Source of the DNA: a virus
Lineage: Duplodnaviria > Caudoviricetes
Reading direction: 5' to 3' (one strand)
IMG/VR virus record: IMGVR_UViG_3300007784_000001
Span: 1-54,842 of that record
Length of the DNA: 54,842 bases
Both the position numbers and the translations under genes were made by a program. How positions within the stretch are numbered: position 1 is the first letter of the stretch; each line of letters starts with the position of its first letter. Under the pieces are notes generated by a model. That model saw only the letters and a list, made by a program, of their open reading frames with translations, did no database searches and was not told the origin of the DNA. This document shows positions 4,280 to 53,958 of the stretch, in pieces.

Positions 4280-4297
4280 TGTCTAACCGGTTAGACA
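4280..4297. repeat. 18-bp palindrome copy 1 (perfect TGTCTAACCGGTTAGACA)
   Basis: 1 nt after the stop of the wedge gene, at the edge of an AT-rich intergenic region. Confidence 0.95.
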
Positions 4298-4298
4298 A

Positions 4299-6785
4299 TT
4301 AGAATGACGGAGGTAGTATTACTACTTGAGAATTCACTGCATCAAATATTGGCAATTCATTTGCGGTCAATCCGATATCTGCCGTCGGACTAGTAATCGT
4401 TACCTTGAACACATTTCCGGGAGAAATCCGAAAAACTTGAGCAACAATCCGAGAGAGTGGAACTTCTTGTCCAAACTGCCAAACGTATGACACAGCATCA
4501 CTCTCAAGTGCAGTAGGCGAAAGAAGATATGACAATGTCTGAATCACCATAGCCTCAGTGACTATCGAGTTGGCTACAACTTCCATTTCAAGAGCGATCG
4601 ATTTCGGAACGTAATTCGAAACCGTCAGCTCATGATTCATAACAAGAACGCCAAGATAATCGTCTCCACCATTGAAGTATTCTTCCAACTCGGTACGAGA
4701 CGACTGTGCAAGAGCGGCACCACCTTGGCCAGCTACAACTAGCTCAATAGTCTTCGGCCCGAACGCATCTTCATACGAACGAGCCCGTGCTACTGGACGT
4801 ACTCCACTAGCACTGACAAATGCAGTTGCAAGAATCTCAGCATCCCGAGGCGTCACTGCCCGATACATTGTACGAAGTCGATAGGGACCTTGTTCCTTGA
4901 CCTTCTCCATCGACTCAACGGAATTCCAATCGGCTTCAACCCAGAAAAGACCGGAACGTGGATTGGTAACCTCAGTGAAAACGCCCACACCGTCACGATT
5001 GACTTGCAACGTATTGGCACCGATATTTCCATCGACGTCGGCGCCCACACGATACGTCGCTTCGATGTTATTGGTTCCAATGGGAGGAATTCTTCCATTC
5101 GTCCCATCACCAAAAACGATCACTGCGGTTCCATCAGAATTGACATCGACTCTGAAGTGACGATCGGTCTGGTACGATGTCAAGAATGTATCGACTCGCT
5201 CCCACTCAATGAATCCGCCACCCTCGTCGACATATACCCGAGCCGAATTGAGAATGTACGGTGTACGAGCAAGAGTAAACGTTTGTGACGTTTGTCCAGA
5301 TGACGAACCCAATGGTACGTCTTCTACTGTCCGACCTTGTATGGCCGTAAAAATAACGTAATGATCGCCCTCGGTAAATGTCATCGAAGTGATATCAGGT
5401 CCAGCCGGTGTGCCACTAACATCAACAATTCGATACCGAAGGAAGTAAGCTTCGCGTTGTGTGCCCGCACTAACGTCATACAACTGATACTGTTGCCAAC
5501 TATCCGATTCAGACTGTGGAAGATCAAACTTCGTCCTTCCACTATTGACCATCCGTTGACTACCAAAAACAGTAGTATCTTCAGTGATGCTGATCGGACG
5601 CCAACTACAAAATACAAGATAGTCGCCCGTTACTATCGATGGTGTCGTTTGTCCCATGTATCCAGGGATATCAACGTAATTCACACCGCCAGCAAAATTA
5701 GATATTGCATTGCTCTCATATCCAGTAGGTACATGTTGTACTTTGATATGAGCACCCTTCGCCGACGTCACTCCCATCAGAGTGTTCAAATTGAAACGCA
5801 AATATCCAGGCGATGGGTCGACTGTTACCAAATCAGGTTGTATCGTTGTTTCGGATGCGTCGTAGAATTCCCAGATTCCTTCGGCACCCAATGGAGCACT
5901 GGCGATCACCGAATCAAACCGATTCCACATCACATCGGTATGACCATAATAGAACTTATTGCCTTCTTGTACCGTGCTAGCCCATGGACTAAACCCAAGA
6001 GCGGCTGCCAAATCAGAAGCACCATTGGCAGTCACTCCACGTACCGTAAACGATAGGCTACCTTCAGAAATGAAAGCAGCATTCGCCAATCTGGCTTGAT
6101 TCCACACTCCAGAACCAGGAGTTGTTTCATCAAGTAGCTCGGTTATCCGAGCATCCTCAATATTGTTTCCAAGAATCGAACCAGTAATCTCAACCATCTT
6201 GTTGAGATCGGCAGTCACAAACTGATACCCCGCCGTAGCTTCCAGAATATCTGGATTGATTGAAGTCACCAATCCAGTTCCCGAGTTCTCACCCTCGACC
6301 CCATATGCAAGTTCGATCTGATCGGTTCTTGCATTGGTCTCAACTTCTGCCGAGTTCTCGAAAATGATTTCATCTTCATCTTCGTTTCGAACAGTAGCAA
6401 ACTTCCGATACGCTTCCAGAAGACGAACCGAACTTGCATACGTACGAGCAAGTTTTGCTAGTACATCAACTTCCGCTGCCGATGCTGGCAACATCCTGTA
6501 ATCGATCAGTCCAAGATGGTACTTCACACTGTCAGGATGACGTGCCGTATCAAGAAATGCATCGTTGGCAACCATATCAATAAGCACGTTGTTGTAGTGA
6601 GCCATCAACGCAAACGCGCGCTCAAGCTGCATAAACGGCTCGCGAAGATCTTCGTTGGTAATCTCAGGTGCGTTCGCCCGATTGAAACGACGAAGGCGAG
6701 CTGCAATCTCAGGAAAGTAGAATCCCGAATATTGGAAATCTGGAGTTCGAATAATTTCCAGATTGGCCGTAAGGTTGGATGCCAT
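4299..6785 (-). CDS. Baseplate wedge protein (gpJ / T4 gp6 / Afp11-like)
   Basis: SSGQTSQTFTL, FGDGTNGRIPP..NNIEATYRVG and RAVTPRD motifs; follows the gp25-like gene. Confidence 0.85.
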   Translation of the reverse strand: MASNLTANLEIIRTPDFQYSGFYFPEIAARLRRFNRANAPEITNEDLREPFMQLERAFALMAHYNNVLIDMVANDAFLDTARHPDSVKYHLGLIDYRMLPASAAEVDVLAKLARTYASSVRLLEAYRKFATVRNEDEDEIIFENSAEVETNARTDQIELAYGVEGENSGTGLVTSINPDILEATAGYQFVTADLNKMVEITGSILGNNIEDARITELLDETTPGSGVWNQARLANAAFISEGSLSFTVRGVTANGASDLAAALGFSPWASTVQEGNKFYYGHTDVMWNRFDSVIASAPLGAEGIWEFYDASETTIQPDLVTVDPSPGYLRFNLNTLMGVTSAKGAHIKVQHVPTGYESNAISNFAGGVNYVDIPGYMGQTTPSIVTGDYLVFCSWRPISITEDTTVFGSQRMVNSGRTKFDLPQSESDSWQQYQLYDVSAGTQREAYFLRYRIVDVSGTPAGPDITSMTFTEGDHYVIFTAIQGRTVEDVPLGSSSGQTSQTFTLARTPYILNSARVYVDEGGGFIEWERVDTFLTSYQTDRHFRVDVNSDGTAVIVFGDGTNGRIPPIGTNNIEATYRVGADVDGNIGANTLQVNRDGVGVFTEVTNPRSGLFWVEADWNSVESMEKVKEQGPYRLRTMYRAVTPRDAEILATAFVSASGVRPVARARSYEDAFGPKTIELVVAGQGGAALAQSSRTELEEYFNGGDDYLGVLVMNHELTVSNYVPKSIALEMEVVANSIVTEAMVIQTLSYLLSPTALESDAVSYVWQFGQEVPLSRIVAQVFRISPGNVFKVTITSPTADIGLTANELPIFDAVNSQVVILPPSF

Positions 6786-7174
6786 TATCGCCTCCTACCA
6801 TTCGATAGACGAACTTCGCGAGTCTCGTTATCTTCCAAATCGACGTAGTTGATAATCATCTCTACGTCGCCCTTATCAGTATCCTGAAGACCAAGCTTGA
6901 GCGAACTACCATCCCGTGGGAGCATCGTGTATCCAAGTCGCTCTTGCTCATCGAAGAAGTTGTAGATGTGCGCAATGAGTTGACCACCGGTCATCTCATC
7001 GGCAATGTTGAAGATCGTTTCCTCAGATGGAGTCAGTTTCTGATGCCACGGATGAAGACTCGACGCAGGAGTCACGCCGAGAATTACATTCTGTCGACGT
7101 GCACTGTATCCCTCGATTGTCCTGGCACCGCCACGAACACCAGTCTCTAACGGTAGTCTCAGTCCTTTGGGCAT
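6785..7174 (-). CDS. Baseplate gp25/gpW-like sheath initiator
   Basis: 129 aa, N-terminal GLRLP, C-terminal I.Y strand; between spike and wedge. Confidence 0.65.
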   Translation of the reverse strand: MPKGLRLPLETGVRGGARTIEGYSARRQNVILGVTPASSLHPWHQKLTPSEETIFNIADEMTGGQLIAHIYNFFDEQERLGYTMLPRDGSSLKLGLQDTDKGDVEMIINYVDLEDNETREVRLSNGRRR

Positions 7175-7177
7175 CGC

Positions 7178-7876
7178 TTACTCCACCAGATTATTCTCTG
7201 AGTTGAGTGTAGATGAAGGCGGTACTGTAGTTGAACTGGAAACAGGAGAATCGGAAACTCCAAGAACACTTATAACTGTCGGACCAGGTAAAGTTACCGA
7301 ATACGTTCCCGGACCATGGGTATGAGAATCCAACCATATTTTCAAAGTATCCAAAAAATCTTTCAATTCATCGCCACGAGTCAATGGATGTTGCGCGTCG
7401 TCTACGCCAATAAACACTTTCGCACTTGTCTCTAATGCAATGTTCCCATCGTTATCGACAGTAATCTTCGCACCTGATGGATGCTCGTAATGGAATGTCA
7501 GACTATCCTCTGTATCGTCGAAATAGAGGATATGCCCTTTCCGAGTAACCCAGCCTCTGCGCTTGGGATAGTTCTCCTGGAATACTTCAGGAACGCCTCC
7601 CTGTGAATACACAGAGCACTTCCACTGAGGGTCAAGGTCATTGGCCTCAGAATCATCTTCAGCTTCGATAGTGACCTCGACGATAGCTCCTGGATTCGGA
7701 ACCCAGAAACTTCCTCCTTGTTCATCGGAACTCGAATCGACGAAATGAAAAGAAGGATTCATCCATTCCATCACGTCGCCTTCGGCGATCGTATCGCACT
7801 GAACTGTCAGTCGACCTCTTTTCTCAGGGTCGTCGTTATCGATTACTATTCCCCAGTGCTTTTCTCGTTTGGGCAT
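7178..7876 (-). CDS. Baseplate central spike (gpV / gp5 OB-fold)
   Basis: DDPEKRGRLTV and FWVPNPGAIVEV OB-fold motifs, beta-repeats, C-terminal HTH (His-x-His) tip motif. Confidence 0.85.
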   Translation of the reverse strand: MPKREKHWGIVIDNDDPEKRGRLTVQCDTIAEGDVMEWMNPSFHFVDSSSDEQGGSFWVPNPGAIVEVTIEAEDDSEANDLDPQWKCSVYSQGGVPEVFQENYPKRRGWVTRKGHILYFDDTEDSLTFHYEHPSGAKITVDNDGNIALETSAKVFIGVDDAQHPLTRGDELKDFLDTLKIWLDSHTHGPGTYSVTLPGPTVISVLGVSDSPVSSSTTVPPSSTLNSENNLVE

Positions 7877-7894
7877 TGTCTAACCGGTTATACT
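7877..7894. repeat. Palindrome copy 2 (TGTCTAACCGGTTATACT)
   Basis: Fills the whole gap between the hub stop (TAG) and the spike ATG. Confidence 0.95.
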
Positions 7895-9848
7895 AGTTCG
7901 TAAGCAAAGCGCGACGCCACCGCTCCAATACATCTTGAGCTTGTGGTGTCAACTGACCCATATCTTCAGACTCAACTGTCATCTCACCATTCTCTTGTTC
8001 TGGTTCATTGAACAACATATCGACCATCAGATAACCAGAAAATGACGTCGTATACATTGAACCAGCCGACATCTTATGAGACACCTGAGTCAGAAAATAC
8101 AATCCATCGAACCTGGTCAATCCATCGAATTGATGTTTATGCCGACAGTGAACTTCGGGAATCCCCTGAATGAACTCACCCTCAGCTTCACAAAACTCCG
8201 ATGCATGATTGTACCAAAAAGACATGAGCCATCGACGTGCATCGTCAATCGTTCGAAAGTTTCGATCTGCCTGAACAGAAGTTCGTCGTCCATGAATAGT
8301 CAACACAACTTCTGGTCCATTCCCTAATGGCTCGTCCATAAGTGCTGTAGCGTCCGGTCCACGGAACTCGGGAGAATAGCGAGAAACGTTCTCCATTGCT
8401 ACACGAAGTCGTTGACTCTTCCGCGTAACAGGGTCCGTGAATACCATATCAATCTCTGTCTTCTGACCGCGTGTTGAGATACGGGGTCGAAAAGACTTGA
8501 GAGTTGTCATCTCACGGTAGTTGTAGTGAAAATTGTATATGATGTGCTGAGGCACATTATGAGGCGAGCCCCAATATCCAATCCAATTGCTAGTCTCATA
8601 GTAATAGAAGACGAACATAATGAAACCGTGGTTCTTGGCTAGCTTCTTGAGAAACTCCCAGTCGGAAGTTCCTGCCTTCTGAACCACTCGACGTCCGCCT
8701 ACTTCTTGTGTAATTCGTACCGTTCGTTCGCCAGTTGTTTCTACAACACGAATAGGCGCATCGTATGCTCTTAAATTCGGTCCTTCTGCATCCATGCTTG
8801 TCAAAAACCGACGTTGTCTATCGGGTGGTAAACTGGCAAACACTTGGGCAACGGATTGATGTGCGGCTTCGGCTTGATCATTTGTATCGCGAAAATTATC
8901 CAATATAGCAGGTTCATTAATTGTTATCTCGCGAACTTCTCGTCTTGAACGTGCATTCCCACCTACAGCTTCAGTATACGGAACAATTCCATACGATTGA
9001 AAAATTGCATTTGCGATTTCATCATCACGAAGATTGCGCCAAACTTTTCCACGATTGTTACGACGGCGAGGAACTCGCGCTTTACGAAGAACTGTTCGTG
9101 TACGTGGAGTATTCGTTCGTTGTTGATTTGTATTTGATGCCGTACCAAGTCTTACAGAATCATTAGCCGCTCTTGTACCAGTTTGATCTAATGTCTGATT
9201 GTGAACCAACGACCGTGCCTGTTGTTCAGTAAGACCTTCCGCCTGCATCAACCTTTCAATTTCTAATTGTTGCGCCTGCGGTGATTCCAATTGTTGCCTT
9301 AAATACGATGTACCTTGTTGATTCGGAGGATTCGCAGGTGGCTGTTGACGATGTCGCTCCCACCACGCCGTACCCTCAGCCTGCACTTCGGCACGACCTT
9401 CTTCCATCAAGAAGTGAGAAATATCATATCCAGTTACGTTTAACTTCGGTATTGAATCCGAAGAGAATTCCGGTTCAATACCAGTAACAATTGCACGACC
9501 CATATAATCAGGATGTCGACCATCGTATCCCATCCATAGATCAATGGAGTTTCCTTCTGCAAACATACGACTGTCATGTAGTCGCATGTCTATGTTCTCG
9601 ATTGTCAACTTCATCATACTTGCTTGACAATCATTCTCTTCCCATTCAACCGATGATACGATCAATCCATTGAGATCGTAGTTGCCTTCAGTGGCATTAG
9701 CTTCCGCCGAGAACATCACTCGATTGTTTTCGCCAGAAATCTCAATACGAAAATACGGTGCTAACATCTCACCGTACTTCTCGCTTATCTCTCGATCATC
9801 TCGACGAAAGAGCCTACCAATTCTCCGAGCCGGATACGGTCCTGGCAT
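7893..9848 (-). CDS. Baseplate hub (gpD / gp27-like) with a large internal insertion
   Basis: GNSIDLWMGY, QKAGTSDWEFLKKLAKNHGF and DGLYFLTQVSH motifs of late-control-D proteins. Confidence 0.8.
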   Translation of the reverse strand: MPGPYPARRIGRLFRRDDREISEKYGEMLAPYFRIEISGENNRVMFSAEANATEGNYDLNGLIVSSVEWEENDCQASMMKLTIENIDMRLHDSRMFAEGNSIDLWMGYDGRHPDYMGRAIVTGIEPEFSSDSIPKLNVTGYDISHFLMEEGRAEVQAEGTAWWERHRQQPPANPPNQQGTSYLRQQLESPQAQQLEIERLMQAEGLTEQQARSLVHNQTLDQTGTRAANDSVRLGTASNTNQQRTNTPRTRTVLRKARVPRRRNNRGKVWRNLRDDEIANAIFQSYGIVPYTEAVGGNARSRREVREITINEPAILDNFRDTNDQAEAAHQSVAQVFASLPPDRQRRFLTSMDAEGPNLRAYDAPIRVVETTGERTVRITQEVGGRRVVQKAGTSDWEFLKKLAKNHGFIMFVFYYYETSNWIGYWGSPHNVPQHIIYNFHYNYREMTTLKSFRPRISTRGQKTEIDMVFTDPVTRKSQRLRVAMENVSRYSPEFRGPDATALMDEPLGNGPEVVLTIHGRRTSVQADRNFRTIDDARRWLMSFWYNHASEFCEAEGEFIQGIPEVHCRHKHQFDGLTRFDGLYFLTQVSHKMSAGSMYTTSFSGYLMVDMLFNEPEQENGEMTVESEDMGQLTPQAQDVLERWRRALLTN

Positions 9849-10749: not shown

Positions 10750-10767
10750 CGTCTCACCGGTTAGACA
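10750..10767. repeat. Palindrome copy 3 (CGTCTCACCGGTTAGACA)
   Basis: Provides the GTC-TAA (Val-stop) end of the tape measure gene. Confidence 0.95.
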
Positions 10768-13436
10768 GAACGACTGAATCCAGTTTCGCGAAGTGAGCGT
10801 CGTTGTCCCGGAGGAAGTCGACCGCCACCACGTTCAAGTTGAGTCACGTTTGCACGCCCTACAGCCCGAGCTATTTCACGTCCATCTAACATCACAGGAA
10901 TTGAAATGTTCATGGTTCCACCGCCGCCACCAGGAACCGTAGGAGTAGGACCGGCCATCATTCCCTCTCCTGCCATCGATACAGCAGGACCAGCCATAGC
11001 TCCCTGACGAGCAAGTACTGCATTCGCAAGATGCCGTCGAGATACTACGATATCACCTGACGAGACTCCCATCAAACCACCACGATTGACATATGCATCC
11101 TGAGCAGTAGGAATACTCATACCAGTATCACCCTCAAGTCCTTCCATAATAGAAGCACTTGTTGGAGCTTGCATTTGACTCATAGCAGTTGCAGCACGTC
11201 GTGCTTCGCGCTGTATACTACGCAACTCAGTTTGAAATCCACTCAATTGCCGAATCGTATTTGTTCGTGCTGTAGATAACTCAGCACCTGCACCACCTGC
11301 AAGTGCAGCCGCTTGAGCCGCAGTTCCACGTCCCAACGATCGATGCAATTGCATAATTTGATTTGTAAGCTCTGGGATTTGTTCTCGTTCGGCACCTGCA
11401 CGATGCAATGTTCTAGCAATATCTTCACGTCCAGCCATAGGTATCAACGTTGCCAATCTTTGCATAGCACTTGATCGTTCAGTAGCTAATGCACTTGCTC
11501 GCGTTGTACCTTGTCGTTCCATACGTCTACTAATAAGGTCTTGAGCAGAAGTATCGATTTGACGTTCGCGATCTCTACGACGCCTACCTCTCATTTCTAA
11601 AAATGCTTCAACTGCACGTTGTGCTGCTCCAGCTATATCCGTAATCATCGCAAGAATTGGACCAAGAACAGGTATCCATTCCAGATAATTACCAAGTACA
11701 GCTACAGTATTTCGACGAATATCTGCCATCTCTTCATTGACTCCATCCAATCCTATTGTCCATTGAGCCAAATTATCGGCAGCTTTTATCGACATAAATC
11801 GCATAGCCATACCAGTTAGATGTACCAATCCACCGCTGAATAACTTTGCTGCACCTGCCGCAGCTCTTGACGCACCAACAAATCGAGTTATCCCTGGTGT
11901 ATTTCTTATCAATCCGGTATAGAATCGACCTATGCTTGGAGCTACTCTTGCTATAGCCCCAAACATCGGAATAAATCCACCAAATGCCACGCGAAGACCT
12001 ATCACTGCGGCAGTCGCACGTGGATAGTTGGTTACCAACCACATGAACTGTTTGGCAACCCAACCAAGAGCTTTGACCAACTCAGCAAGATTGAGCATAA
12101 ACTCTCGTATTTGAGTAGCATTCTCTCGAACACGAGGACTCATCTCATTCAATTCATCGCGCATATCCTCGTGCCCATCTTCGAGCATACCCATAACTCG
12201 AATTGCACGAGCTATTTCACGAACGTAAGTTCCAAACCCTTCGCGATTGGTCTCCATCGCACCAAACAAGATCTCACCAAATGCAATTGCCAAATCGGTA
12301 AGACCGTTCTTGAGCTGCTCAACTTGCATATGGAATCCGCGCATACGCTCTTCTTCCATACGCATAATACGACTTGTAACATTTCCTCGATCTTGAATTT
12401 CAGTATTGATTCTCAACATACGACGTGCAGCTTCATTGTATTCAGACAATGAAATACCAGCCGCCAATGCACGTCGACCAAAGATAGCAACTTCTAATTG
12501 CGCTCGTTGCTGTTGAGTCGGCAATCGACCCATAACTTGCATCAACTGAGCCATCAAATCTGGCAATCGACGCAAGTTTCCATGCTCATCATGAACAATT
12601 TGAGACCACGACGATGTTCCTTGAGTAACACGATCTATCTGTTCCTGCACTTGTCGAGATGGGCGAATCAATGCAGCAACGGCACCTCTCAATCGAGTAC
12701 CAGCCGTAGTACCACGTAGACCAACGACAGATAGACCGGCCAATGCTGACATAACTTCATGTGAACGATATCCCAATGCCGACATTTCTGTACCGGCATA
12801 TCGAAATGCTTGCTGCAATTGCTCGATATTGGTCGATGCCATGTTAGCAGCAACTGCTAACTGTCCTGACATCTGATCGGCAAACTCCCGCAACGTTATG
12901 TTCTGTGATGCCATTTCACCACGGAACATATTCATCGTATCGACAAGAAACCGAGTAGCATTATCGGTATCCATCTCAGCAACACGAGCTAATCGCAACG
13001 ATGAACCGATCAAACGCATTGATGCATGAACACCAATACCAGTCTGAATCATCGTGGTCATTGCAGTGTTTGCTTCGGTAGTCGAGTATCCAAGATTGAT
13101 AGCAGCACGTTCAGCAACAGCAGACGATATCCGTGCATTCTGACGTTGTGCATTCGTAGTCGCAGCAAGAGTTGTTCTCAACTGCGCTTGTGCACGAGAA
13201 TAATCAGCATACGCAGTCACTGTCCTACGTATCCCAAGACCTAGTGCAACCATTGAACCGGCAGCACCAATCATGAGACCGCGCATCCCAAGCATACCGG
13301 CCTTGAGCTGTGTCATGGCTTGCTTGAGATTCTTGACTTCTCTACTGAGATTCTTGGTCTTTTGCGCCGCTGGAGCGGCACCAACAACCTGGAACCATAA
13401 GATGTGCTTGTTTTTTGTGGCGGCCATGGTGCCCAC
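10761..13436 (-). CDS. Tail tape measure protein (TP901-type core); likely start ATG 13427
   Basis: AANMASTNIEQLQQAFRYAG and GLRGTTAGTRLR motifs; Ala/Arg-rich helical; hydrophobic segments; C-terminal LDGREIAR. Confidence 0.92.
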   Translation of the reverse strand: MGTMAATKNKHILWFQVVGAAPAAQKTKNLSREVKNLKQAMTQLKAGMLGMRGLMIGAAGSMVALGLGIRRTVTAYADYSRAQAQLRTTLAATTNAQRQNARISSAVAERAAINLGYSTTEANTAMTTMIQTGIGVHASMRLIGSSLRLARVAEMDTDNATRFLVDTMNMFRGEMASQNITLREFADQMSGQLAVAANMASTNIEQLQQAFRYAGTEMSALGYRSHEVMSALAGLSVVGLRGTTAGTRLRGAVAALIRPSRQVQEQIDRVTQGTSSWSQIVHDEHGNLRRLPDLMAQLMQVMGRLPTQQQRAQLEVAIFGRRALAAGISLSEYNEAARRMLRINTEIQDRGNVTSRIMRMEEERMRGFHMQVEQLKNGLTDLAIAFGEILFGAMETNREGFGTYVREIARAIRVMGMLEDGHEDMRDELNEMSPRVRENATQIREFMLNLAELVKALGWVAKQFMWLVTNYPRATAAVIGLRVAFGGFIPMFGAIARVAPSIGRFYTGLIRNTPGITRFVGASRAAAGAAKLFSGGLVHLTGMAMRFMSIKAADNLAQWTIGLDGVNEEMADIRRNTVAVLGNYLEWIPVLGPILAMITDIAGAAQRAVEAFLEMRGRRRRDRERQIDTSAQDLISRRMERQGTTRASALATERSSAMQRLATLIPMAGREDIARTLHRAGAEREQIPELTNQIMQLHRSLGRGTAAQAAALAGGAGAELSTARTNTIRQLSGFQTELRSIQREARRAATAMSQMQAPTSASIMEGLEGDTGMSIPTAQDAYVNRGGLMGVSSGDIVVSRRHLANAVLARQGAMAGPAVSMAGEGMMAGPTPTVPGGGGGTMNISIPVMLDGREIARAVGRANVTQLERGGGRLPPGQRRSLRETGFSRSV

Positions 13437-39994: not shown

Positions 39995-39995
39995 A

Positions 39996-46085: not shown

Positions 46086-46113
46086 GAATCCTCCTACCGA
46101 AGATCATACAATA

Positions 46114-46727: not shown

Positions 46728-46730
46728 TAC

Positions 46731-46748
46731 TGTCTCCCTGGTTAGACA
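46731..46748. repeat. Palindrome copy 17 (TGTCTCCCTGGTTAGACA)
   Basis: Between the stop at 46750 and ATG 46727; 15/18 match. Confidence 0.8.
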
Positions 46749-46749
46749 C

Positions 46750-46926: not shown

Positions 46927-46988
46927 GTCTCCTCCTTATGGCACAGTTAATTATTGCCATTTACGCGAATTTGTCACAGGGGAGATCA

Positions 46989-47204: not shown

Positions 47205-47584
47205 TTTGTCGGCCTCCAACGTCGAGGTGGCTTCCATCCCTCTGCCAATGCCTGCTTAGCCCAATCAGGGAATGGCCGTCCCGTTTGAATAGCTTTCAAC
47301 TCTGCTCGTGCCAATCTCATTGCCCGAGCAGCATGCTTCTTCGTTTCCCATATATACGCACCGCTCGTTGAGCAACACGTAACCTTTACCCTCTGAGCGC
47401 CACGTAGAGCAGCAATATTCTGTCGATGTGTGATTGCATCTTTGTCAGATATCGGCTCACCGAGAAGAACATCCATTCGGCTACTACCATCAGGTTGAAC
47501 ATCAAACCAACCTATACTCCAACCGCGCTCCCACATGTCTTCTACAAGCCCAAGATGCAACGGCATATTTTCCTCGCTAGGCAT
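47201..47584 (-). CDS. Hypothetical protein
   Basis: 127 aa in a coupled run. Confidence 0.55.
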   Translation of the reverse strand: MPSEENMPLHLGLVEDMWERGWSIGWFDVQPDGSSRMDVLLGEPISDKDAITHRQNIAALRGAQRVKVTCCSTSGAYIWETKKHAARAMRLARAELKAIQTGRPFPDWAKQALAEGWKPPRRWRPTK

Positions 47585-47972
47585 CTACAATATTCGAACG
47601 TCCTAGCGAATCTATACTGTCCTTACCCACCATGCAAGCTTCACATCGAATCTCATCGGCTACTATCCTCGCACAATGAGAGCACAGCGGACGAAAGCAC
47701 TTTCCGCAATACAACGGGTCTTCGTCCGATATACTGTTAACCATGCAATCAGTACACAATCTCATACGAGCAGTCTGCAACCGAAGCTGCTCTACAGTAT
47801 CGAATGCGTATTTGCCAAGATTTTCATTATCGAAAACCCAACCAGCAGACATCCCAGTAATCGTGAAGTCATTCTGTTCACGCATGATGTCTTCAATGGC
47901 ATAAGCTGGGAGATGACGACTGATCAACGAATAGATGAATGCAACCATGGCATCCCTAGTTCCGAATGACAT
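47577..47972 (-). CDS. Zn-finger-containing hypothetical protein
   Basis: CTDC, CGKC, CSHC, CEAC. Confidence 0.55.
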   Translation of the reverse strand: MSFGTRDAMVAFIYSLISRHLPAYAIEDIMREQNDFTITGMSAGWVFDNENLGKYAFDTVEQLRLQTARMRLCTDCMVNSISDEDPLYCGKCFRPLCSHCARIVADEIRCEACMVGKDSIDSLGRSNIVDA

Positions 47973-48421
47973 TATTCTTCTTTCTTGGGCGAGAACTCAG
48001 AAGCATTTACACCATCCATGAGCATTAGGCCACTACCAGGAAACCTCATACCAACAAACGACGGTGCCCATCCAGTTTCCACAAACCGTTCAGCAGCTTC
48101 TCGCGACGACGGTCCACATACTCCACCAGCACCCTTAGTCATCAAGTGCTCTATGAGTTCTTCTCGTGTGGCAAATACAGGAGAAGTAGGTGACCCTTCT
48201 GAAACCGTTTCCCATATCTGCCAACCCTCTCCCTCGGGTGGCTCGTAATAGTAAGGACACTCGTCCTTTGATATGTCGCAATTATCATCTTCCTCATACC
48301 CTTCTTCGGGTACAAACTTCTCACATTTGCAATGGGTTCGATACTCCGTATACCCAGGCCATACTCCATCATTAGGGCCATGATCGAAATCCAGAGCTAC
48401 CCTTTTGATTTCACGTCCCAT
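47972..48421 (-). CDS. Conserved hypothetical phage protein
   Basis: MGREIKRV, GWQIWETVSEGSP.SPVF motifs. Confidence 0.6.
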   Translation of the reverse strand: MGREIKRVALDFDHGPNDGVWPGYTEYRTHCKCEKFVPEEGYEEDDNCDISKDECPYYYEPPEGEGWQIWETVSEGSPTSPVFATREELIEHLMTKGAGGVCGPSSREAAERFVETGWAPSFVGMRFPGSGLMLMDGVNASEFSPKKEE

Positions 48422-48423
48422 AT

Positions 48424-48954
48424 TTACCCTCTGTCTATCCGGTTAGACAACATCTGGTCTAATATTTTTCTGAGTTGAGGTGGCTTCCATCCGGGAGGCT
48501 TGAGTCGCTTGCCCTTCTCATTCAGCATACCGCCCTTCTTCTTCATATTCGTTCGATGGACTTCATCGAAGAACGGTTCAAGATCAAGGTTCATGGCGTT
48601 CGTAGTATTGTGAATAGTGACAATCATGTCACACATTGCATCAATAGCCTTGACCCATGCAGCCTTCACAGACTCAAACTCATCAAGATACCGGATGTTC
48701 CCAAGACTCGCAGCTCGCTTCAATGCACAATCGAGTTCCTCCATTGCTTCCTGGAATTCGCGATGTTCTTCGTCTACCAACGAACGAAGCAAATCAATAT
48801 GAAATGAAGTTAGAAACCGAACTCCCGGACCATTGACATCGTGAGGAAGTGGAAGGTCTAATGCCAACATCATTTGCTTGACTTGTGCTTGTGTCTTATG
48901 CATGATTGCTCCAATCCCGTTCGGGAAAATGAAACCGTTAGCTGGCGGTATCAC
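48424..48954 (-). CDS. MazG-like all-alpha NTP pyrophosphatase (DR2231/dUTPase-like)
   Basis: L..EE..E, DA.CD, FDEVHRTNM.K, GK.LKPPGW.PP. Confidence 0.8.
   Translation of the reverse strand: MIPPANGFIFPNGIGAIMHKTQAQVKQMMLALDLPLPHDVNGPGVRFLTSFHIDLLRSLVDEEHREFQEAMEELDCALKRAASLGNIRYLDEFESVKAAWVKAIDAMCDMIVTIHNTTNAMNLDLEPFFDEVHRTNMKKKGGMLNEKGKRLKPPGWKPPQLRKILDQMLSNRIDRG
48432..48449. repeat. Palindrome copy 18 (TGTCTATCCGGTTAGACA), intragenic
   Basis: In the last codons (SNRID) of the MazG-like gene. Confidence 0.92.
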
Positions 48955-48977
48955 CCCCTAAATTTTCCCGAGCGGGA

Positions 48978-49178
48978 TTACGCTCTGTCCCGAGTGCGCT
49001 CTTCGCAAATGTGACAGTAGTTCAAATCTTCGTTCTCACATGCGCAGCAATTCCCATACTGCCTGCCACATACTTCGCATGATGTACGAAACTCTTCACA
49101 ACCGATTGGTAGATGACAAATATCACAAACGGTTTCTTCCAGAACGTCTTCATCGTAGTAATCATGCATGTCACTCAT
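48978..49178 (-). CDS. Small Cys-rich protein
   Basis: Multiple CxxC. Confidence 0.5.
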   Translation of the reverse strand: MSDMHDYYDEDVLEETVCDICHLPIGCEEFRTSCEVCGRQYGNCCACENEDLNYCHICEERTRDRA

Positions 49179-49576
49179 AGTATTCTCGTCCCTCGATTAT
49201 TCTGTCGTTGGATACACACCGACGTTCGAATGTCTTGCATTGCCAGTAGTTGCTTTCCTCGTTCAATAACCTTTGCGGATATCAACCTCTGCAATTTGCT
49301 CTCTGGTATATACTGAACTATCAACCGACAATCAAACTCCTGACATACCGCCGGACGTTTACTCCATATCTTGCAGCCTTTCTCTCTGTCGAGATAAACA
49401 CAATCGCCATTCTTCTTGTGTAGCAATACTAACCGACCCTCGTATATCTCAGTGATGTACTTCCTCGGGTCGTCTCCCATGTGCGGCTTGATGACTATCC
49501 GATCGCTCTGACAGCAAGCTACACATCCATTACACGGCACTTGCTGAGTTATTGGTTGATCTGTAATCAGCTCCAT
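49175..49576 (-). CDS. YkgJ-like CxxCxxCC protein
   Basis: CNGCVACC, CVYLD..GCKIW..RP.VC..FDC. Confidence 0.8.
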   Translation of the reverse strand: MELITDQPITQQVPCNGCVACCQSDRIVIKPHMGDDPRKYITEIYEGRLVLLHKKNGDCVYLDREKGCKIWSKRPAVCQEFDCRLIVQYIPESKLQRLISAKVIERGKQLLAMQDIRTSVCIQRQNNRGTRIL

Positions 49577-49979
49577 GATTCAACTTCTCCTGTGTCTCTT
49601 CAGGCAACGCATATCGACCACGATGTAGTCGCCTTAGAATTCCACGATTTGTCAACTTTCGACACGATAAACGAATACTATTGGCTGTTCCCATTCCAAT
49701 ATTATGCTGGCAATAATTGACAATACTTGGTATCTCTCTACCCGCTATACGATTATTCAATGACTCGATAACGGCCATCTCCAATCTAGTCACATTCATA
49801 TCAACATGAGTAACATTAACTTCTTCAACTGGTTCCTCCTCAATAACAGGAACCTCTGACTTCTGCTCAACAAACAACGAGGCAGCATTGCGAATACGCT
49901 CTGCTACCTCCAAAAACTCCTCAGCCTTCTTCTCGAATTGTTCTGCTAGTTCCATCAACGAATCACGATCGAATTGCAT
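49530..49979 (-). CDS. Coiled-coil plus winged-helix DNA-binding protein
   Basis: N-terminal heptads; C-terminal SIR..C.KL..RG.L.RL.RGRY; AAGGAGG SD. Confidence 0.6.
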   Translation of the reverse strand: MQFDRDSLMELAEQFEKKAEEFLEVAERIRNAASLFVEQKSEVPVIEEEPVEEVNVTHVDMNVTRLEMAVIESLNNRIAGREIPSIVNYCQHNIGMGTANSIRLSCRKLTNRGILRRLHRGRYALPEETQEKLNHGADYRSTNNSASAV

Positions 49980-50040
49980 AGATGCCTCCTTACCCTGTTA
50001 ATTATCACCAACGGGCAAGAAATATCTGTACAATTACATA

Positions 50041-50316
50041 TCAATATCCGCGAGAAGGCCAATATCGTTCAAGGTAAGATATCTTCTGCTCAACATCCAT
50101 AGCAGGAAACTCTGCCCAATGCGTAGCATATGATAGCTTCATCCTATCCCCTCGAACAATCCACCATTTGTGATGAGAGCTACGTCCAACACATAGTTGG
50201 GCAATCATTGCATCATCGTTTCTGGCATTGTAGATAATGACGGGACGACTGATCAATAGGCCGGTTATTCTCTCCTCTACAACAGGGAGAGTGTAATCAA
50301 CTTCGTTCCATTGCAT
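50041..50316 (-). CDS. DUF551-like hypothetical protein
   Basis: W..V...LP...THW...P. Confidence 0.5.
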   Translation of the reverse strand: MQWNEVDYTLPVVEERITGLLISRPVIIYNARNDDAMIAQLCVGRSSHHKWWIVRGDRMKLSYATHWAEFPAMDVEQKISYLERYWPSRGY

Positions 50317-50485
50317 AATACGACTCTACAACTTCGCTTGCCATTTGATCGAGCCATTTGGGGTCTGTGGATATATGGAAATTCGCAGCGGCCAAACGAG
50401 ATAGAATCGATGGCTCTGTACAAGTCTTGACCTTCTCGGTCATCCACTGATGGACCAATTGTTGTTTCTCAATATTCCGTTTCAT
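50297..50485 (-). CDS. Hypothetical protein
   Basis: 62 aa in operon. Confidence 0.45.
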   Translation of the reverse strand: MKRNIEKQQLVHQWMTEKVKTCTEPSILSRLAAANFHISTDPKWLDQMASEVVESYYAMERS

Positions 50486-50494
50486 CGAATGTCC

Positions 50495-50512
50495 TGTCTA
50501 ACCGGTGAGACT
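50495..50512. repeat. Palindrome copy 19 (TGTCTAACCGGTGAGACT)
   Basis: Overlaps the TAG of 50511..50771. Confidence 0.95.
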
Positions 50513-50771
50513 ACTCAGGTATCTTGGCCAGATATTGCACTGCCCACTTACCTTCCAGTTTCTTTCGAATGTTCCGTCGAATGACCATAGGTACCGTGAC
50601 TTCGTTCGGGTTGTCACATGCACCACACATGAATACCACCGGCCTTGACGGGATATCATGTATCATCAAATCACCAGTCGATATCGATACGATGCTCGTG
50701 CAACATGCACACTGTCTTATCGCTCGCCAATAGCTCTTGTTCTTGTCAGGTACAGTTGCAATTACTTTCAT
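50511..50771 (-). CDS. Zn-ribbon protein
   Basis: CACC...CGAC. Confidence 0.55.
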   Translation of the reverse strand: MKVIATVPDKNKSYWRAIRQCACCTSIVSISTGDLMIHDIPSRPVVFMCGACDNPNEVTVPMVIRRNIRKKLEGKWAVQYLAKIPE

Positions 50772-50779
50772 CGACTACC

Positions 50780-51040
50780 TCAATACCATGTCGAGATACC
50801 AGCTTCATCTATCAATTGCTGAATCTTAGTTCGATATTCTTCCAACTTTGCATACGTTTCGTCCGACAACGAATCGTTATGTTTGATATCGCTACGTAGC
50901 GCCTGGTCCAAATCCCACAAAACACCACGATACTTGTTACCCTCCATAGAAATCCACATGGTTTCCTGCTCGTCTGGCTCGCCCAGATCAAATTCAAGAG
51001 TCGCTTTTGGCATGATCAACTCCAAGTTTCGTTTTGCCAT
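50780..51040 (-). CDS. Conserved hypothetical phage protein (alternative start 51013)
   Basis: KATLEFDL...LWDLDQ.LR...KH. Confidence 0.6.
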   Translation of the reverse strand: MAKRNLELIMPKATLEFDLGEPDEQETMWISMEGNKYRGVLWDLDQALRSDIKHNDSLSDETYAKLEEYRTKIQQLIDEAGISTWY

Positions 51041-51069
51041 TGAAGAATTATAGTCAAAAGGAAGGGAAA

Positions 51070-51112
51070 GTTCCCACCATCAAGGCCCAACTCTAAACTT
51101 GATGGTGGGAAC
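51070..51112 (-). terminator. Intrinsic terminator downstream of the tRNA
   Basis: GTTCCCACCATCAAG / CTTGATGGTGGGAAC 15-bp stem then TTTCCCTTCCTTTT on the minus strand. Confidence 0.75.
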
Positions 51113-51144
51113 CAAGGCAATGCACGACAGGCACGATAGCATGA

Positions 51145-51217
51145 TTGCGGGGGTTGGACTTGAACCAACGACCATCAGGGTATGAACCTGATAAGCTACC
51201 AACTGCTCCACCCCGCG
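51145..51217 (-). tRNA. tRNA-Met(CAT), initiator (fMet) type; CCA not encoded
   Basis: CGCGGGG acceptor with C1:A72 mismatch, A11-U24, anticodon arm TCAGG-TTCATAC-CCTGA, T-loop GGTTCAAGTCC. Confidence 0.93.
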
Positions 51218-51222
51218 TTATT

Positions 51223-51251
51223 GTTATAACCACGAATCACCCATCAATCAA
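51223..51251 (-). promoter_or_regulatory. Sigma70-type promoter for the tRNA
   Basis: TTGATT-17nt-TATAAC ending 5 nt before tRNA position 1. Confidence 0.5.
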
Positions 51252-51511
51252 CTATCTTTTGGACCAACCCATCCACCTTCGACCAATCCATTACGAATAT
51301 CGCAATACTCCTGTAGAATATCAGTAAGCGTCATGATCTGACGTTGAGTAAGTCCTATCCATAACGGAGGGGGTGTTTCGATATCGTGCCCCCTATTCAT
51401 TCCAAGAAGAATTTCCTTATCTTTTGTCAGTTTGATGAAAACTGTTCCGCGCTCGCTTGCCAATATCACTTCTTCAAACTGTTCTTCTTTATTCATCTTC
51501 GTCGTCGTCAT
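51248..51511 (-). CDS. Hypothetical protein
   Basis: ORF in coupled run. Confidence 0.5.
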   Translation of the reverse strand: MTTTKMNKEEQFEEVILASERGTVFIKLTKDKEILLGMNRGHDIETPPPLWIGLTQRQIMTLTDILQEYCDIRNGLVEGGWVGPKDS

Positions 51512-51812
51512 CGATAGTCTCTCCTGTTACGTAATCGATACCATACGCTTCCATGATATCTTCACGAAGCGTTCCATATACAAACCCACCACAACATACG
51601 TCTCTTCGAATATTGACACATGTCATACATGTACGATGAGTATCCAAATATCCACCCCATTTACCAAATACATATTCATATCTTTCCCCCTTCTTTATCG
51701 TCTCTCCACATTCAAGACATGTGTATTCCTTTCGTGCATGAACATACTTCTCTGACATGAACTCTGGTGGCTCACCATCGTAACCACATATGCATGCACA
51801 TCCGAAATCCAT
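51489..51812 (-). CDS. Zn-finger phage protein
   Basis: ARKEYTCLECGETIKKGERY...C.TC. Confidence 0.65.
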   Translation of the reverse strand: MDFGCACICGYDGEPPEFMSEKYVHARKEYTCLECGETIKKGERYEYVFGKWGGYLDTHRTCMTCVNIRRDVCCGGFVYGTLREDIMEAYGIDYVTGETIDDDDEDE

Positions 51813-51820
51813 AGGAACTC

Positions 51821-52060
51821 CTACCCTTCGTACGCAACCAGATCTCTTACGCCTCGCATCTCCTCAACACCATTACTCCACTTCACCATGTAAAACATAG
51901 GAGCGTACTGCCGTTCCCATGGCATATTCATATTTCCAGAATCAATCGAAGTTACCTTTCCGATCATATTCTTATTCCCCATCAACCGAACCTTCTCTCC
52001 AATATCAAAAGGGTTTCCCTTAGTACCTCGACGGCGGGCTCTCGTTTTTGATTTTGTCAT
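51821..52060 (-). CDS. Small SH3-like protein
   Basis: FDIGEKVR...GKV...Y.VKW. Confidence 0.55.
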   Translation of the reverse strand: MTKSKTRARRRGTKGNPFDIGEKVRLMGNKNMIGKVTSIDSGNMNMPWERQYAPMFYMVKWSNGVEEMRGVRDLVAYEG

Positions 52061-52077
52061 GTCTCACCGGTTAGACA
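52060..52077. repeat. Palindrome copy 20 (TGTCTCACCGGTTAGACA)
   Basis: Spans the stop of 52071..52427 and the A of the next ATG (TAA-CCGGTGAGAC-ATG). Confidence 0.95.
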
Positions 52078-52427
52078 TCTGATTTTGTTTCAGGAGATTC
52101 CCATGCGGCAGGTCGAACAGTATTACATGGTATGCCACCGTAAATCGACATAGCTACAATCTCAACTCCACGAGATAGATAACTGACCAAATCATCAACA
52201 TTATCAATAACGAATCCATTGATGCCTTTTCTACAAAACTGACCTTGGATAAATTCATCGTAAGATAATGGAAAAGGAATATGCAGATCAAGCTTTGTCG
52301 CATACGCGGCAATACGCGAAGCCTCTTGATGTGTCCTACATACAATATACGCATTGTGCTCGGCTGCTAGCCGAATACATTTTGTAGTCTTACCGCTATT
52401 CCTTCCACCTACTATCAATGTCGGCAT
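52071..52427 (-). CDS. Small P-loop protein
   Basis: GGRNSGKTT Walker A and VIDNVD Walker B-like. Confidence 0.6.
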   Translation of the reverse strand: MPTLIVGGRNSGKTTKCIRLAAEHNAYIVCRTHQEASRIAAYATKLDLHIPFPLSYDEFIQGQFCRKGINGFVIDNVDDLVSYLSRGVEIVAMSIYGGIPCNTVRPAAWESPETKSDV

Positions 52428-52434
52428 GTTCCCC

Positions 52435-52668
52435 TCAATCCAGATTACAGCCCGAGTAAATGCTCCATTCTAGTTCACCATGTGGAGTCAGACATTCGCA
52501 TTCCATATCGTCATAGTCATAACTGACAGTACCTGAAATACAAGGTCGATGTTCTGCCTGTTCGTAGCAATCTTTTTCGGCATTGCAATGAGCAGAAATA
52601 ATCAATCCAATTATGATGATCACTGTAAATACAATGAGCATACCCTTGATAGAATCATCAATCCTCAT
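52435..52668 (-). CDS. Small membrane-anchored Cys-rich protein
   Basis: N-terminal TM segment then several Cys. Confidence 0.5.
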   Translation of the reverse strand: MRIDDSIKGMLIVFTVIIIIGLIISAHCNAEKDCYEQAEHRPCISGTVSYDYDDMECECLTPHGELEWSIYSGCNLD

Positions 52669-52882
52669 CTTCAGTACTCGTCTTCTCTCCTAAATTGAAA
52701 GTGTGCCCACACTCATCACATTGAGCTTCCTCGTTCATATCAATTGCATTCGCAACTATCTCGCTGATATCGTCGAGTATCTCACGTTCATTGACATCGA
52801 TCAGAACATAAGCATTGATCGATACGTCTTCGCTTTTACACTTTGGACACGTGTAGATCTCATCTTCCATTATCTTCTCCAA
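52658..52882 (-). CDS. Zn-ribbon protein
   Basis: CPKC...CDECG. Confidence 0.55.
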   Translation of the reverse strand: MEKIMEDEIYTCPKCKSEDVSINAYVLIDVNEREILDDISEIVANAIDMNEEAQCDECGHTFNLGEKTSTEDED

Positions 52883-53093
52883 CTTTCTTAGTAATCAGCG
52901 GAAGCAATATCGTCCGCATGTGATAATCGTCAATGACTACATTCTCATCTCGACCCTTCTTATTTATTGGGTCAGCTATCTTTTCGTCAAGCATCGCTAC
53001 GGCAGCACAATCTTCACCACCAATTGCAGCGCACATATCACGATACTCGCCAAGTGTCTCAGGACACGGTTGTCCGGTTTCGTCTGTTCTCAT
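52860..53093 (-). CDS. Hypothetical protein
   Basis: ATGA-coupled 77 aa. Confidence 0.55.
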   Translation of the reverse strand: MRTDETGQPCPETLGEYRDMCAAIGGEDCAAVAMLDEKIADPINKKGRDENVVIDDYHMRTILLPLITKKVGEDNGR

Positions 53094-53296
53094 GATTTTT
53101 TGCTAACAAGCTCGCTGATAGCATCCTCTGCTAGATGTTGAACAGCTTCATTGAATGCACGCATCAACGGCATACGACAAGACGAGTGTACAGTAACCTG
53201 CCCGCCACCACCTCGTTCACACGTAATGGCAATGTTCAGATTACGATCATCGTCAATCCACATCTTGAATCTGAACCCGCGTTCAGTATACTCCAT
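53090..53296 (-). CDS. Hypothetical protein
   Basis: AGGAG SD before in-frame ATG 53296. Confidence 0.5.
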   Translation of the reverse strand: MEYTERGFRFKMWIDDDRNLNIAITCERGGGGQVTVHSSCRMPLMRAFNEAVQHLAEDAISELVSKKS

Positions 53297-53342
53297 GAGA
53301 CTCTCCTGTATGAGACTCTCACTATATCCGGTTTGACCGTCA

Positions 53343-53903
53343 TTACCATTCACTTTTCTTCTTCGCGTCAACCAAACGTACAGACCGTTGAATCTTCGAA
53401 AGATCAAGTTCAACCACGGCATGTTTGGCCAACGCTTCAACCACAGCTACCCGCCCTCTCAGGTCCAGTAGTTCACGATAAAACGAACTATGATTGTTCT
53501 CGTCTGCACCAAACAAGTTCTCCCGCAATGCCTGTAGATCATCAGACAATGCAGTTTGAACATCCTGAACATCGCCCAGTGTTTTGCGCTCGTCTTTCAA
53601 TCGATTCTCAAAATCAATCTGCGCTTCAACAATACGAGAAAGACGAGACTCCAATTCAGCTACTCGTTTGTTCAAACGATCAAGTGATTGATCTACTCCG
53701 AGATGGGAATGAGAAGCATGACTGTGTTTCGAATGACGAGCTTTCAATGCTTCTAGTTCAATCCGAAACGCACCAATTGCGTCCGTCTGAGTTTTTTCTG
53801 TATCTTCTAAAGCATCAACACGATCGTGAAGCTCTTTGATATTGTCACATTCATTGTTGAAGTCTTGTCGCAACTTCATTATTTCAGTATCCTCATTCAC
53901 CAT
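53343..53903 (-). CDS. Long coiled-coil protein
   Basis: 186-aa heptads; GGAGG SD with TATAAT just upstream. Confidence 0.6.
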   Translation of the reverse strand: MVNEDTEIMKLRQDFNNECDNIKELHDRVDALEDTEKTQTDAIGAFRIELEALKARHSKHSHASHSHLGVDQSLDRLNKRVAELESRLSRIVEAQIDFENRLKDERKTLGDVQDVQTALSDDLQALRENLFGADENNHSSFYRELLDLRGRVAVVEALAKHAVVELDLSKIQRSVRLVDAKKKSEW

Positions 53904-53940
53904 AGATTGCCTCCGAGAATATTATATTGAGATAGAGGAA

Positions 53941-53958
53941 AGTCTAACCGGTTAGACA
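53941..53958. repeat. Palindrome copy 21 (AGTCTAACCGGTTAGACA)
   Basis: Intergenic, 14 nt upstream of a TATAAT box on the minus strand. Confidence 0.95.

Follow-up and report, generated by a model that had tools for sequence, protein, structure and literature searches.

A dispersed 18-bp palindrome in an uncultured myovirus

We analysed the IMG/VR virus record IMGVR_UViG_3300007784_000001 (Duplodnaviria; Caudoviricetes), a linear sequence of 54,842 bp which is referred to throughout, at its full length, as the window, and in which an 18-bp palindrome recurs at 21 dispersed positions. The record is rated 54 % complete and represents about half of a genome of roughly 100 kb, so that negative results for the window bear on a partial genome, approximately 45 % of it not being covered by the record. 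The minus strand carries, in order, the genes for the large terminase, portal, major capsid protein, head-tail adaptors, tail sheath, tape measure and baseplate proteins, and the presence of sheath, tape measure and baseplate genes identifies a contractile-tailed phage (myovirus). The region from 39 to 55 kb contains small minus-strand genes, including dCTP-deaminase-like and MazG-like genes, together with a tRNA-Met. No nucleotide match was found among 50,697 phage records, and the best protein identities to cultured phages were all below 36 % (the terminase at approximately 25 % and the capsid protein at 35 %), the phage having no cultured relative. A 62-kb relative, G001, is syntenic with the window at 63-72 % nucleotide identity in conserved genes and contributes a replication module encoding a UvrD-like helicase with an intein, PolB, RecA, a DnaB-like helicase, a DnaG-type primase and a PD-(D/E)XK nuclease.

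The pattern TGTCTAACCGGTTAGACA was matched at 21 positions of the whole window when up to three mismatches were allowed, and 100 dinucleotide shuffles gave a mean of 0.02 matches with a maximum of one. Scanning the window with a symmetrised weight matrix derived from the 21 sites returned 21 matches of at least 23.8 bits and nothing between 8 and 23.8 bits, so the site set is clean and contains no weak copies. A preliminary description of this DNA, made from its letters, had listed 21 copies with at least one intact half in each; the pattern match recovered every one of its start positions, and an intact GTCTAAC or GTTAGAC half is present in 21/21 copies. The 13-bp core of the motif reads TCTAAC-S-GTTAGA. 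Outside the motif, isolated half-sites number six, whereas hexamers of the same composition average 28; this ranks only 12th among 102, and no depletion is claimed. Six motif strings were absent from the text of the papers searched, supplementary files lying outside that search, and literature queries on evenly spaced intergenic phage palindromes returned mainly work on CRISPR and phage genomics and none on such repeats.

Location of the sites relative to genes

The palindrome is concentrated at gene boundaries, with 16 of the 21 site centres lying within 30 bp of a junction midpoint, zones that make up 9.6 % of the window. The stop codon of the upstream gene is a TAA within the motif at seven of the 21 sites, overlaps the first two bases of the motif at three further sites and lies 0-3 nt ahead of it at another four; the next start codon follows no more than 12 nt beyond the motif in 13/21. 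One site (18568) is well inside a gene and two (25308 and 48432) fall in a gene's last codons. The only conserved feature of the flanks is a downstream Shine-Dalgarno-like G-rich patch. The individual sites are as follows.

Site 1, 4280-4297: perfect copy, 1 nt past the stop of an 828-amino-acid (aa) baseplate-wedge-like gene (4299-6785, minus strand), 103 nt to the start at 4176.
Site 2, 7877-7894: overlaps the stop of 7893-9848 and is abutted by the ATG of 7178-7876.
Site 3, 10750-10767: the tape-measure gene (10761-13436) ends in the motif's TAA, next start 8 nt away.
Site 4, 15373-15390: 28 nt past the sheath stop (15419-17896), 12 nt to the start at 15360.
Site 5, 18568-18585: inside a 463-aa gene (17912-19303), in a conserved protein segment.
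Site 6, 20364-20381: the motif's TAA is the stop of a head-tail adaptor-like gene (20375-21343), abutted by the ATG of 19884-20363.
Site 7, 23026-23043: 13 nt past the stop of 23057-23746, 6 nt to the start at 23019.
Site 8, 25308-25325: in the 3' part of an open reading frame (ORF), 25251-25832, 40 nt to the start at 25267.
Site 9, 28394-28411: the motif's TAA is the stop of 28405-28695, a small gene after the major capsid gene, GTG start 4 nt away.
Site 10, 31509-31526: 117 nt past the portal stop (31644), 29 nt to the in-frame ATG at 31479 of a 541-aa ORF.
Site 11, 33980-33997: immediately past the stop of the large terminase (33998-35668), 11 nt to the portal start at 33968.
Site 12, 37503-37520: in the plus-strand cassette, the motif's TAA being the stop of 37228-37509, with the ATG at 37522 1 nt away; kept in relatives.
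Site 13, 40712-40729: overlaps the stop of 40728-41075, 45 nt to the start at 40666.
Site 14, 41976-41993: 72 nt past the stop of 42066-42485, 17-33 nt to the start of 41731-41958.
Site 15, 42922-42939: the motif's TAA is the stop of a dCTP-deaminase-like gene (42933-43487), 147 nt to the start at 42774.
Site 16, 45285-45302: the motif's TAA is the stop of 45296-45871, ATG 8 nt away.
Site 17, 46731-46748: 1 nt past the stop of 46750-46926, ATG 3 nt away.
Site 18, 48432-48449: last codons of a MazG-like ORF (48424-48954), ATG at 48421 10 nt away.
Site 19, 50495-50512: overlaps the stop of 50511-50771, ATG at 50485 9 nt away.
Site 20, 52060-52077: 52071-52427 ends in the motif's TAA, and the motif's last base lies in the ATG of 51821-52060.
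Site 21, 53941-53958: 3 nt past the stop of 53962-54462, 37 nt to the ATG at 53903.

Downstream of the sites at 4280, 42922 and 53941 the spacers are longer and AT-rich with TATAAT-like hexamers (4230-4279, 42870-42921 and 53904-53940), and at these three positions the motif may stand at or near the -35 position of host-type promoters. Just past the sheath stop, 16 nt ahead of site 4, the segment 15407-15417 reads TGTCTTAGACA, which equals the two outer arms of the motif minus the central AACCGGT.

The spacing of the sites is over-regular

The 20 gaps between sites in the window range from 946 to 4623 bp, with a mean of 2483 bp, a standard deviation (SD) of 927 bp and a coefficient of variation (CV) of 0.373. 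These were compared with a uniform null and with a junction null, in which 21 positions were drawn at random from the 86 ORF junctions given by greedy ORF calls made in this analysis. A CV as low as that of the window was obtained in 0 of 100,000 simulations under the uniform and the junction null alike. The smallest gap equalled or exceeded the observed one at a frequency of 1.4e-4 under the uniform null and 5e-5 under the junction null, and the largest empty stretch was no longer than observed at 2.6e-4 and 7e-5, respectively. The preliminary description had named beforehand, as an outcome that would count against it, gaps of no greater regularity than sites placed at random on gene junctions would give; the gaps proved more regular than that, and the same is true of G001, whose 21 sites are 1.1-5.1 kb apart with a CV of 0.33 (0/100,000 under either null).

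The intragenic sites of both genomes are those which split the otherwise longest gaps. Without site 18568 the window would have a gap of 4991 bp; G001 would have one of 6163 bp without its site at 13010, within PolB, and one of 8215 bp without those at 24011 and 27260, within helicase genes. The protein segment around 18568 can be aligned with all of its orthologues, so substitutions, rather than an insertion, created this site. G001 has no counterpart of 18568 and carries instead a site at the adjacent junction which the window lacks. A window-specific block of approximately 7 kb (21.3-28.4 kb), flanked by sites common to G001, contains two further sites. A spacing rule with both a floor and a ceiling is statistically firm, and is kept via a turnover of sites that includes their creation within coding sequence.

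Conservation and concerted change of the palindrome in relatives

The exact 16-bp core was found in ten stretches of viral contigs, eight of which come from relatives of the window. Relatives carry the motif at the same gene boundaries, in keeping with the expectation that related phages would share it. Across 22 orthologous site pairs the motif is identical at 343 of 396 positions (87 %), compared with 1097 of 1760 (62 %) in the 40-nt flanks. The 18-mer is unchanged across relatives whose guanine-plus-cytosine (GC) content ranges from 0.43 to 0.60. The 9.6-kb relative L006, with 72 % capsid identity, has a GC content of 0.60 against 0.47 in the window, yet has the same 18-mer.

Sister lineages with 60-67 % capsid identity to the window have another palindrome at the same junctions. 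The word TGTAAAAC-S-GTTTTACA is present in L043, L048, L051, L054, L056, L069 and L072. Another of these lineages, L042, contains the 18-mer twice and, four times, a 17-mer in which the same arms enclose one base less; at the shared junctions it has this 17-mer, which keeps the arms of the window. The junctions at which the versions differ are terminase/portal, the portal side of the capsid block, the position after the capsid gene, adaptor/next gene, sheath/next gene and the methylase cassette. Since different versions of the palindrome stand at the same boundaries, the sites have changed in concert, and a concerted change of both arms at every site is what a shifted specificity of a trans-acting reader would predict. 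L044 (capsid identity 53 %) and L045 (30 %) showed no enriched palindrome in the 16-21 kb covered, and the trait seems confined to a sub-clade. The concerted switching of two to three palindrome versions at the same junctions provides a natural experiment for finding the reader by covariation.

Symmetry, folding and orientation of the sites

In the arms (positions 2-7 and 12-17), 13 of the 21 sites depart from the consensus, with a total of 15 pair-breaking changes, one G.U wobble and no compensated pair, as expected from the earlier statement that mismatches are not compensatory. The accompanying statement that the motif has no loop has to be corrected, as a perfect copy can fold into a 7-bp stem with a CCGG loop, though at only -5.0 kcal/mol; three of the 21 copies fold at 0.0. 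The deviation pattern and the weak folding nevertheless favour, as had been proposed, a site in double-stranded DNA for a two-fold symmetric reader over a hairpin. The pattern fits a reader of duplex DNA that would tolerate one weak half-site, not a selected hairpin. A T run of the intrinsic-terminator kind is missing after all 21 sites, and the 19 terminator-like matches in 36000-54842 include no motif site. A strong intrinsic-terminator-like hairpin of 19 pairs with a T run lies at 42502-42542 (minus strand) after the small ORF 42580-42774, and shows ordinary bacterial-type terminators in use, unlike the motif.

The better half of the site, taken relative to transcription, shows no strand bias in the window, being the downstream half at six sites and the upstream half at eight, with both halves equal at seven. 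In G001 it is the downstream half at 14 sites and the upstream half at one, with six equal (p = 0.001), and the bias reverses where the gene strand reverses. It persists at sites whose upstream half is non-coding, for example 31136, 33290, 44365, 46971 and 54378, so coding constraint does not explain it. The bias in G001 points to a role coupled to transcription or translation and argues against direction-blind roles such as packaging, replication or pure organisation of the chromosome.

Sites also occur at convergent gene junctions, at 60570 in G001 and 11328 in L008. These placements, and one directly after a terminator in an unrelated phage (see below), suit insulators or roadblocks and not promoters. 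Matches to sigma-70-type promoters were not enriched, 34 being found compared with 39.8 in shuffles, and sigma-70 promoters at the sites were rejected on this count. The motif as a methylase target was likewise rejected: the neighbouring enzyme is a D12-class adenine methylase, and CCGG outside the motif occurs at the expected level (134 vs 159).

The plus-strand cassette and the search for a reader

The cassette at 36434-39270 (plus strand) encodes the D12-class adenine methylase, a 93-aa cysteine-rich ORF, site 37503, a 71-aa cysteine-rich ORF, a J-domain protein (37748-38095) with its HPD motif present, a helix-turn-helix (HTH) protein and a tandem four-cysteine protein. The cassette is retained by every relative that covers it; the same gene order is found in G001, L008, L043, L048, L051 and L054, except that L054 is without the HTH gene. 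Two of the products were considered as predicted readers of the palindrome.

38477-39064, plus strand: candidate reader (predicted only), 195 aa, two tandem four-cysteine repeats, present in 7/7 relatives covering the region.
37995-38477, plus strand: weaker candidate reader (predicted), 160 aa, HTH resembling DnaA domain IV.

The protein encoded at 38477-39064 would, by virtue of its tandem repeat, suit a palindrome, and an (M/T)PYR motif follows each C4 repeat. Its family comprises 77 homologues, all metagenomic, some of them single-repeat proteins of 100-130 aa and some on contigs of 95-110 kb. It gave no Pfam match, no fold match in the PDB at E <= 0.001 (AlphaFold2 model, pLDDT 69) and only unnamed Atlas clusters, and the family profile was absent from the genomes G006-G010. 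On the pLDDT of the model, the missing fold match and the unnamed clusters it was not accepted as the reader and is kept as a candidate lead only. The DnaA-domain-IV-like HTH protein was likewise not accepted, because its recognition helix varies among records that have the same motif and because of the gap in the L054 cassette, and it too is a lead only.

Profile searches of five records (G000, G001, G007, G008 and G009) returned no match to ParB_N (PF02195), for which controls were positive in 11/14 genomes, none to the T7-type RNA_pol (PF00940), a search made without a positive control, and none to Ogr_Delta (PF04606).

The same arms in unrelated phages and the search of host genomes

The arms of the palindrome are also present, many times, in phage records in which a distant terminase is all that could be detected in common with the window. 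G007, complete at 63 kb and bearing terminal repeats, has its 14 sites within approximately 8 kb. Four tandem copies of a 15-17-bp version lie directly after an intrinsic terminator at 18.06-18.44 kb (L139 6060-6440) and head an operon; two of them lie within a direct repeat, and a copy then follows at each later gene junction for 8 kb. The central triplet reads CCA six times and TGG never. The genes of this operon include a MoxR-like AAA ATPase, a VWA/DUF2201 protein and an Nmad5 domain protein. Eight sites were found in G006, five exact 17-mers approximately 8 kb apart in G009, and four sites in G008, a complete 52-kb genome.

Beyond the distant terminase, blastp found no protein common to the window and the unrelated motif phages. 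A reader shared with them was sought by blastp, with the cysteine-protein profile and with five cassette-family profiles (1388 ORFs, E <= 1), and all of these searches were empty. A host-side reader, a small undetected reader gene and convergence are each possible explanations for the arms in these phages. Among 185,579 species genomes the exact 16-mer core gave 19 single matches and no enriched genome, which agrees with the view that the motif is not a multi-copy host site. The 19 loci gave no clue to the host, each having one site and no phage homology except for one methylase-like match.

Interpretation

We tentatively favour, at a little short of an even chance, the reading that the palindromes are sites dispersed in duplex DNA at which a sequence reader specific to this lineage would act on gene expression. 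The 18-mers would be cis-acting recognition sites in double-stranded DNA for a single two-fold symmetric reader, either a dimer or a tandem-repeat protein. Selection would keep one site per approximately 1-5 kb across the early, replication and structural modules, placed at a gene boundary if one is available and otherwise within a gene. We infer that a protein binds these sites and, once bound, would block or insulate transcription at block boundaries over the whole chromosome, in the manner of Cluster A stoperators. Of the preliminary description, the duplex-DNA site, the over-regular spacing, the presence in relatives and the lack of host enrichment carry over into this reading; its argument against a repressor, its parS-like alternative and a direction-blind role do not.

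Several observations weigh against this reading. The mixture of 17- and 18-bp spacing in L042 would be uncommon with a rigid dimer and fits a loop better. The two neighbouring candidate readers each have contrary evidence, and no match to an Xre-type HTH_3 was found in the window. A reader encoded by this lineage leaves the arms in the unrelated phages unexplained. Constitutive roadblocks within the PolB and helicase genes of G001 would harm the phage. Finally, the phage looks virulent from its gene content, with Phage_integrase and Resolvase matched in 0/5 of the records searched, which makes a lysogeny-type immunity repressor unlikely and requires that a role in the lytic cycle be assumed.

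The sites could alternatively be loading or nucleation points for a sliding, spreading or bridging protein, through which the chromosome would be coated, compacted or silenced as by ParB/KorB or a nucleoid-type organiser. Spacing bounded both below and above is expected if each site has a limited reach, and long gaps are indeed filled by intragenic sites. The reported sliding of KorB from its palindromic OB over distances of up to 1.5 kb to promoters (PMC11790492) is comparable to half the mean gap here, 1.24 kb, and in a comparison made here the OB core given in that report, TTTAGCGGCTAAA, shares its layout with TCTAAC-S-GTTAGA. We nevertheless judge this explanation unlikely. The five records without ParB_N include two complete phages with a related motif, and this result also counts against the parS-like reading of the preliminary description, the window itself being a partial genome. 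A symmetric loader would not be expected to show the orientation bias of G001, nor does the confinement of all G007 sites to 8 kb of a 63-kb genome favour it.

A promoter or initiator for a phage-specific polymerase, sigma factor or activator, keeping long operons transcribed as in T7-type phages, is a further alternative. The density and junction placement of the sites resemble those of phage-polymerase promoters, sites are oriented with transcription in G001 and, by their central triplet, in G007, tandem copies head the G007 operon, and G001 has a weak Sigma70_r2 match at 8886-9557. A palindrome would however fire both ways, including at the convergent junctions, and the 13 sites within 12 nt of a start codon leave no space for a -10 element and a leader. 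The flanks have no conserved element, sigma-70 matches are not enriched, and the T7-type polymerase search, with the limit given above, was negative, all of which makes promoters a decidedly improbable explanation.

We regard as equally doubtful an element of the mRNA, either a short hairpin or a linear motif upstream of ribosome-binding sites that would act in processing, stability or translational control between blocks of coupled genes. Such an element would account for the position of most copies between a stop codon and the next ribosome-binding site, for an orientation that tracks transcription in G001 and for the loop-like variation of the centre in one genome (L042), where the 7-bp arms stand 3 or 4 nt apart. 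The motif in unrelated phages could be explained if it were read by something that many hosts have in common, such as a ribonuclease or the ribosome. The pair-breaking deviations, the weak or absent folding of the copies and the symmetry of the window sites speak against it. A site at a convergent junction would moreover be read from both strands, and palindromy survives the change of arms between lineages, which a linear RNA motif would not require.

Recombination linkers or relics of a small mobile palindrome, aiding block exchange among co-infecting phages, would fit sites at block boundaries, the window-specific block flanked by shared sites to which it adds two, and the same arms in unrelated phages, but are the least probable explanation, since those phages share no genes with the window beyond the terminase, no transposase, integrase or resolvase was found, and linker exchange predicts neither a minimum and maximum spacing nor the creation of intragenic sites in place.

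A broader and unlikely reading would regard the palindromes as a chromosomal ruler. A probably virulent phage of approximately 100 kb would maintain docking sites at distances of at most about 5 kb, creating them within essential genes if no boundary is available, for a reader of limited reach that would silence, insulate, compact or shield the whole genome. The specificity of the reader would have co-evolved with all of the sites at once between sister lineages, and the arms would have been taken up by unrelated phages, which may hint at a host-side partner in common. Should the reader be found, the system could show genome-wide control or protection of a large lytic phage by one protein and one short word.

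Further features of the phage and its distribution

The portal ORF (31644-33968, minus strand) has an extra C-terminal domain at residues ~510-770 with matches to PHROGs annotated as head maturation protease, methyltransferase and RNA ligase, which suggests a fusion. Two helicase genes of G001 contain inteins, the UvrD-like gene (L015 5833-8889) with a LAGLIDADG domain and a ResIII/DEAD gene (L016 3284-5224) with a Hint domain. The HTH protein of the G001 cassette (59450-60016), counterpart of that in the window, scores as Sigma70_r4_2 above the cut-off (26.8 bits), and the Sigma70_r2 match is to a 223-aa ORF of the G001 replication module (L015 8886-9557) at 18.9 bits, below the cut-off; judging from these domain matches, the phage may encode sigma-like factors.

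The stretch 27500-37490 was found in contigs from four DNA sequencing runs. In three of these, from different studies (soil, wetland and soil), it is identical, and the fourth has 137 differences. Among the 40 of these 137 differences that were listed none falls in the three sites of the stretch, where about 0.7 would be expected by chance. The identical 10-kb stretch could reflect a very widespread, near-clonal phage or a shared source. There were no RNA runs among the 24 runs listed.

Comparison with known dispersed sites

The systems closest to the present one come from other phages and from a plasmid. The phiC31 phage of Streptomyces has 17-bp inverted repeats (CIRs) in many intergenic regions which are bound by the phage repressor, this being a temperate siphovirus with a known repressor gene. 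The late-promoter dyads of P2/P4, which are read by the Ogr/Delta zinc-finger activators, have the TGT-N12-ACA geometry; a genome has about four of them, each placed approximately 55 bp upstream of a transcript start. P4 Delta consists of the Ogr unit duplicated in tandem, and a tandem-duplicated cysteine-rich protein is encoded in the window too (38477-39064). The window differs in the absence of Ogr_Delta from the records searched and in the 13 sites that end so close before a start codon.

KorB of plasmid RK2 is described as loading at palindromic OB sites and sliding to silence promoters (PMC11790492). As in the account of that system, where the replicon is of roughly 60 kb, the window has a dispersed palindromic 13-bp core with a central S, and one global regulator would be involved. 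KorB requires a ParB-type CTPase, whereas ParB_N is missing from the records here. RK2 has 12 OB sites, which to our knowledge are not evenly spaced at gene junctions.

Cluster O mycobacteriophages are reported to possess over 30 copies of a 17-bp dyad repeat, TGTTCGGNNNCCGAACA, of unknown function, whose distribution was likened to that of stoperators (PMC4351075). As described there, 14 of 34 repeats are clearly intergenic, the repeats are denser at one genome end and they have no close link to start codons (PMC4351075). The palindrome of the window is similarly a 17-18-bp inverted repeat in tens of copies genome-wide, some of them intragenic. It differs from that description in sequence, host group and virion type, and in its junction placement, proximity to start codons and even spacing.

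The stoperators of Cluster A phages (L5 and relatives) are described as more than 20 asymmetric 13-mers in promoter regions and short intergenic spaces genome-wide, oriented with transcription and bound by a monomeric immunity repressor which stops elongation (PMC9283540). The Cluster A genomes are of roughly 50 kb. Site density and placement at junctions are alike, and the sites of G001, though not those of the window, are oriented too. The site here is an 18-bp palindrome instead, unbiased between its halves in the window, and its spacing is measurably over-regular. Cluster A phages are temperate, while the present phage has a virulent look, with no HTH_3 in the window, no integrase in the five records and its own replisome (in G001). 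The earlier argument that an ordinary repressor would not need sites spread so widely is not supported by these accounts, in which Cluster A stoperators are genome-wide repressor sites and the dyads of Cluster O are dispersed as well.

The present case belongs with the dispersed operator-like repeats of phage genomes, from which it is distinguished by its spacing rule, by a concerted, clade-wide change of the motif and by its occurrence in a probably lytic, uncultured 100-kb myovirus. Such repeats are known from a few groups of actinobacteriophages, with a mechanism demonstrated only for the stoperators.

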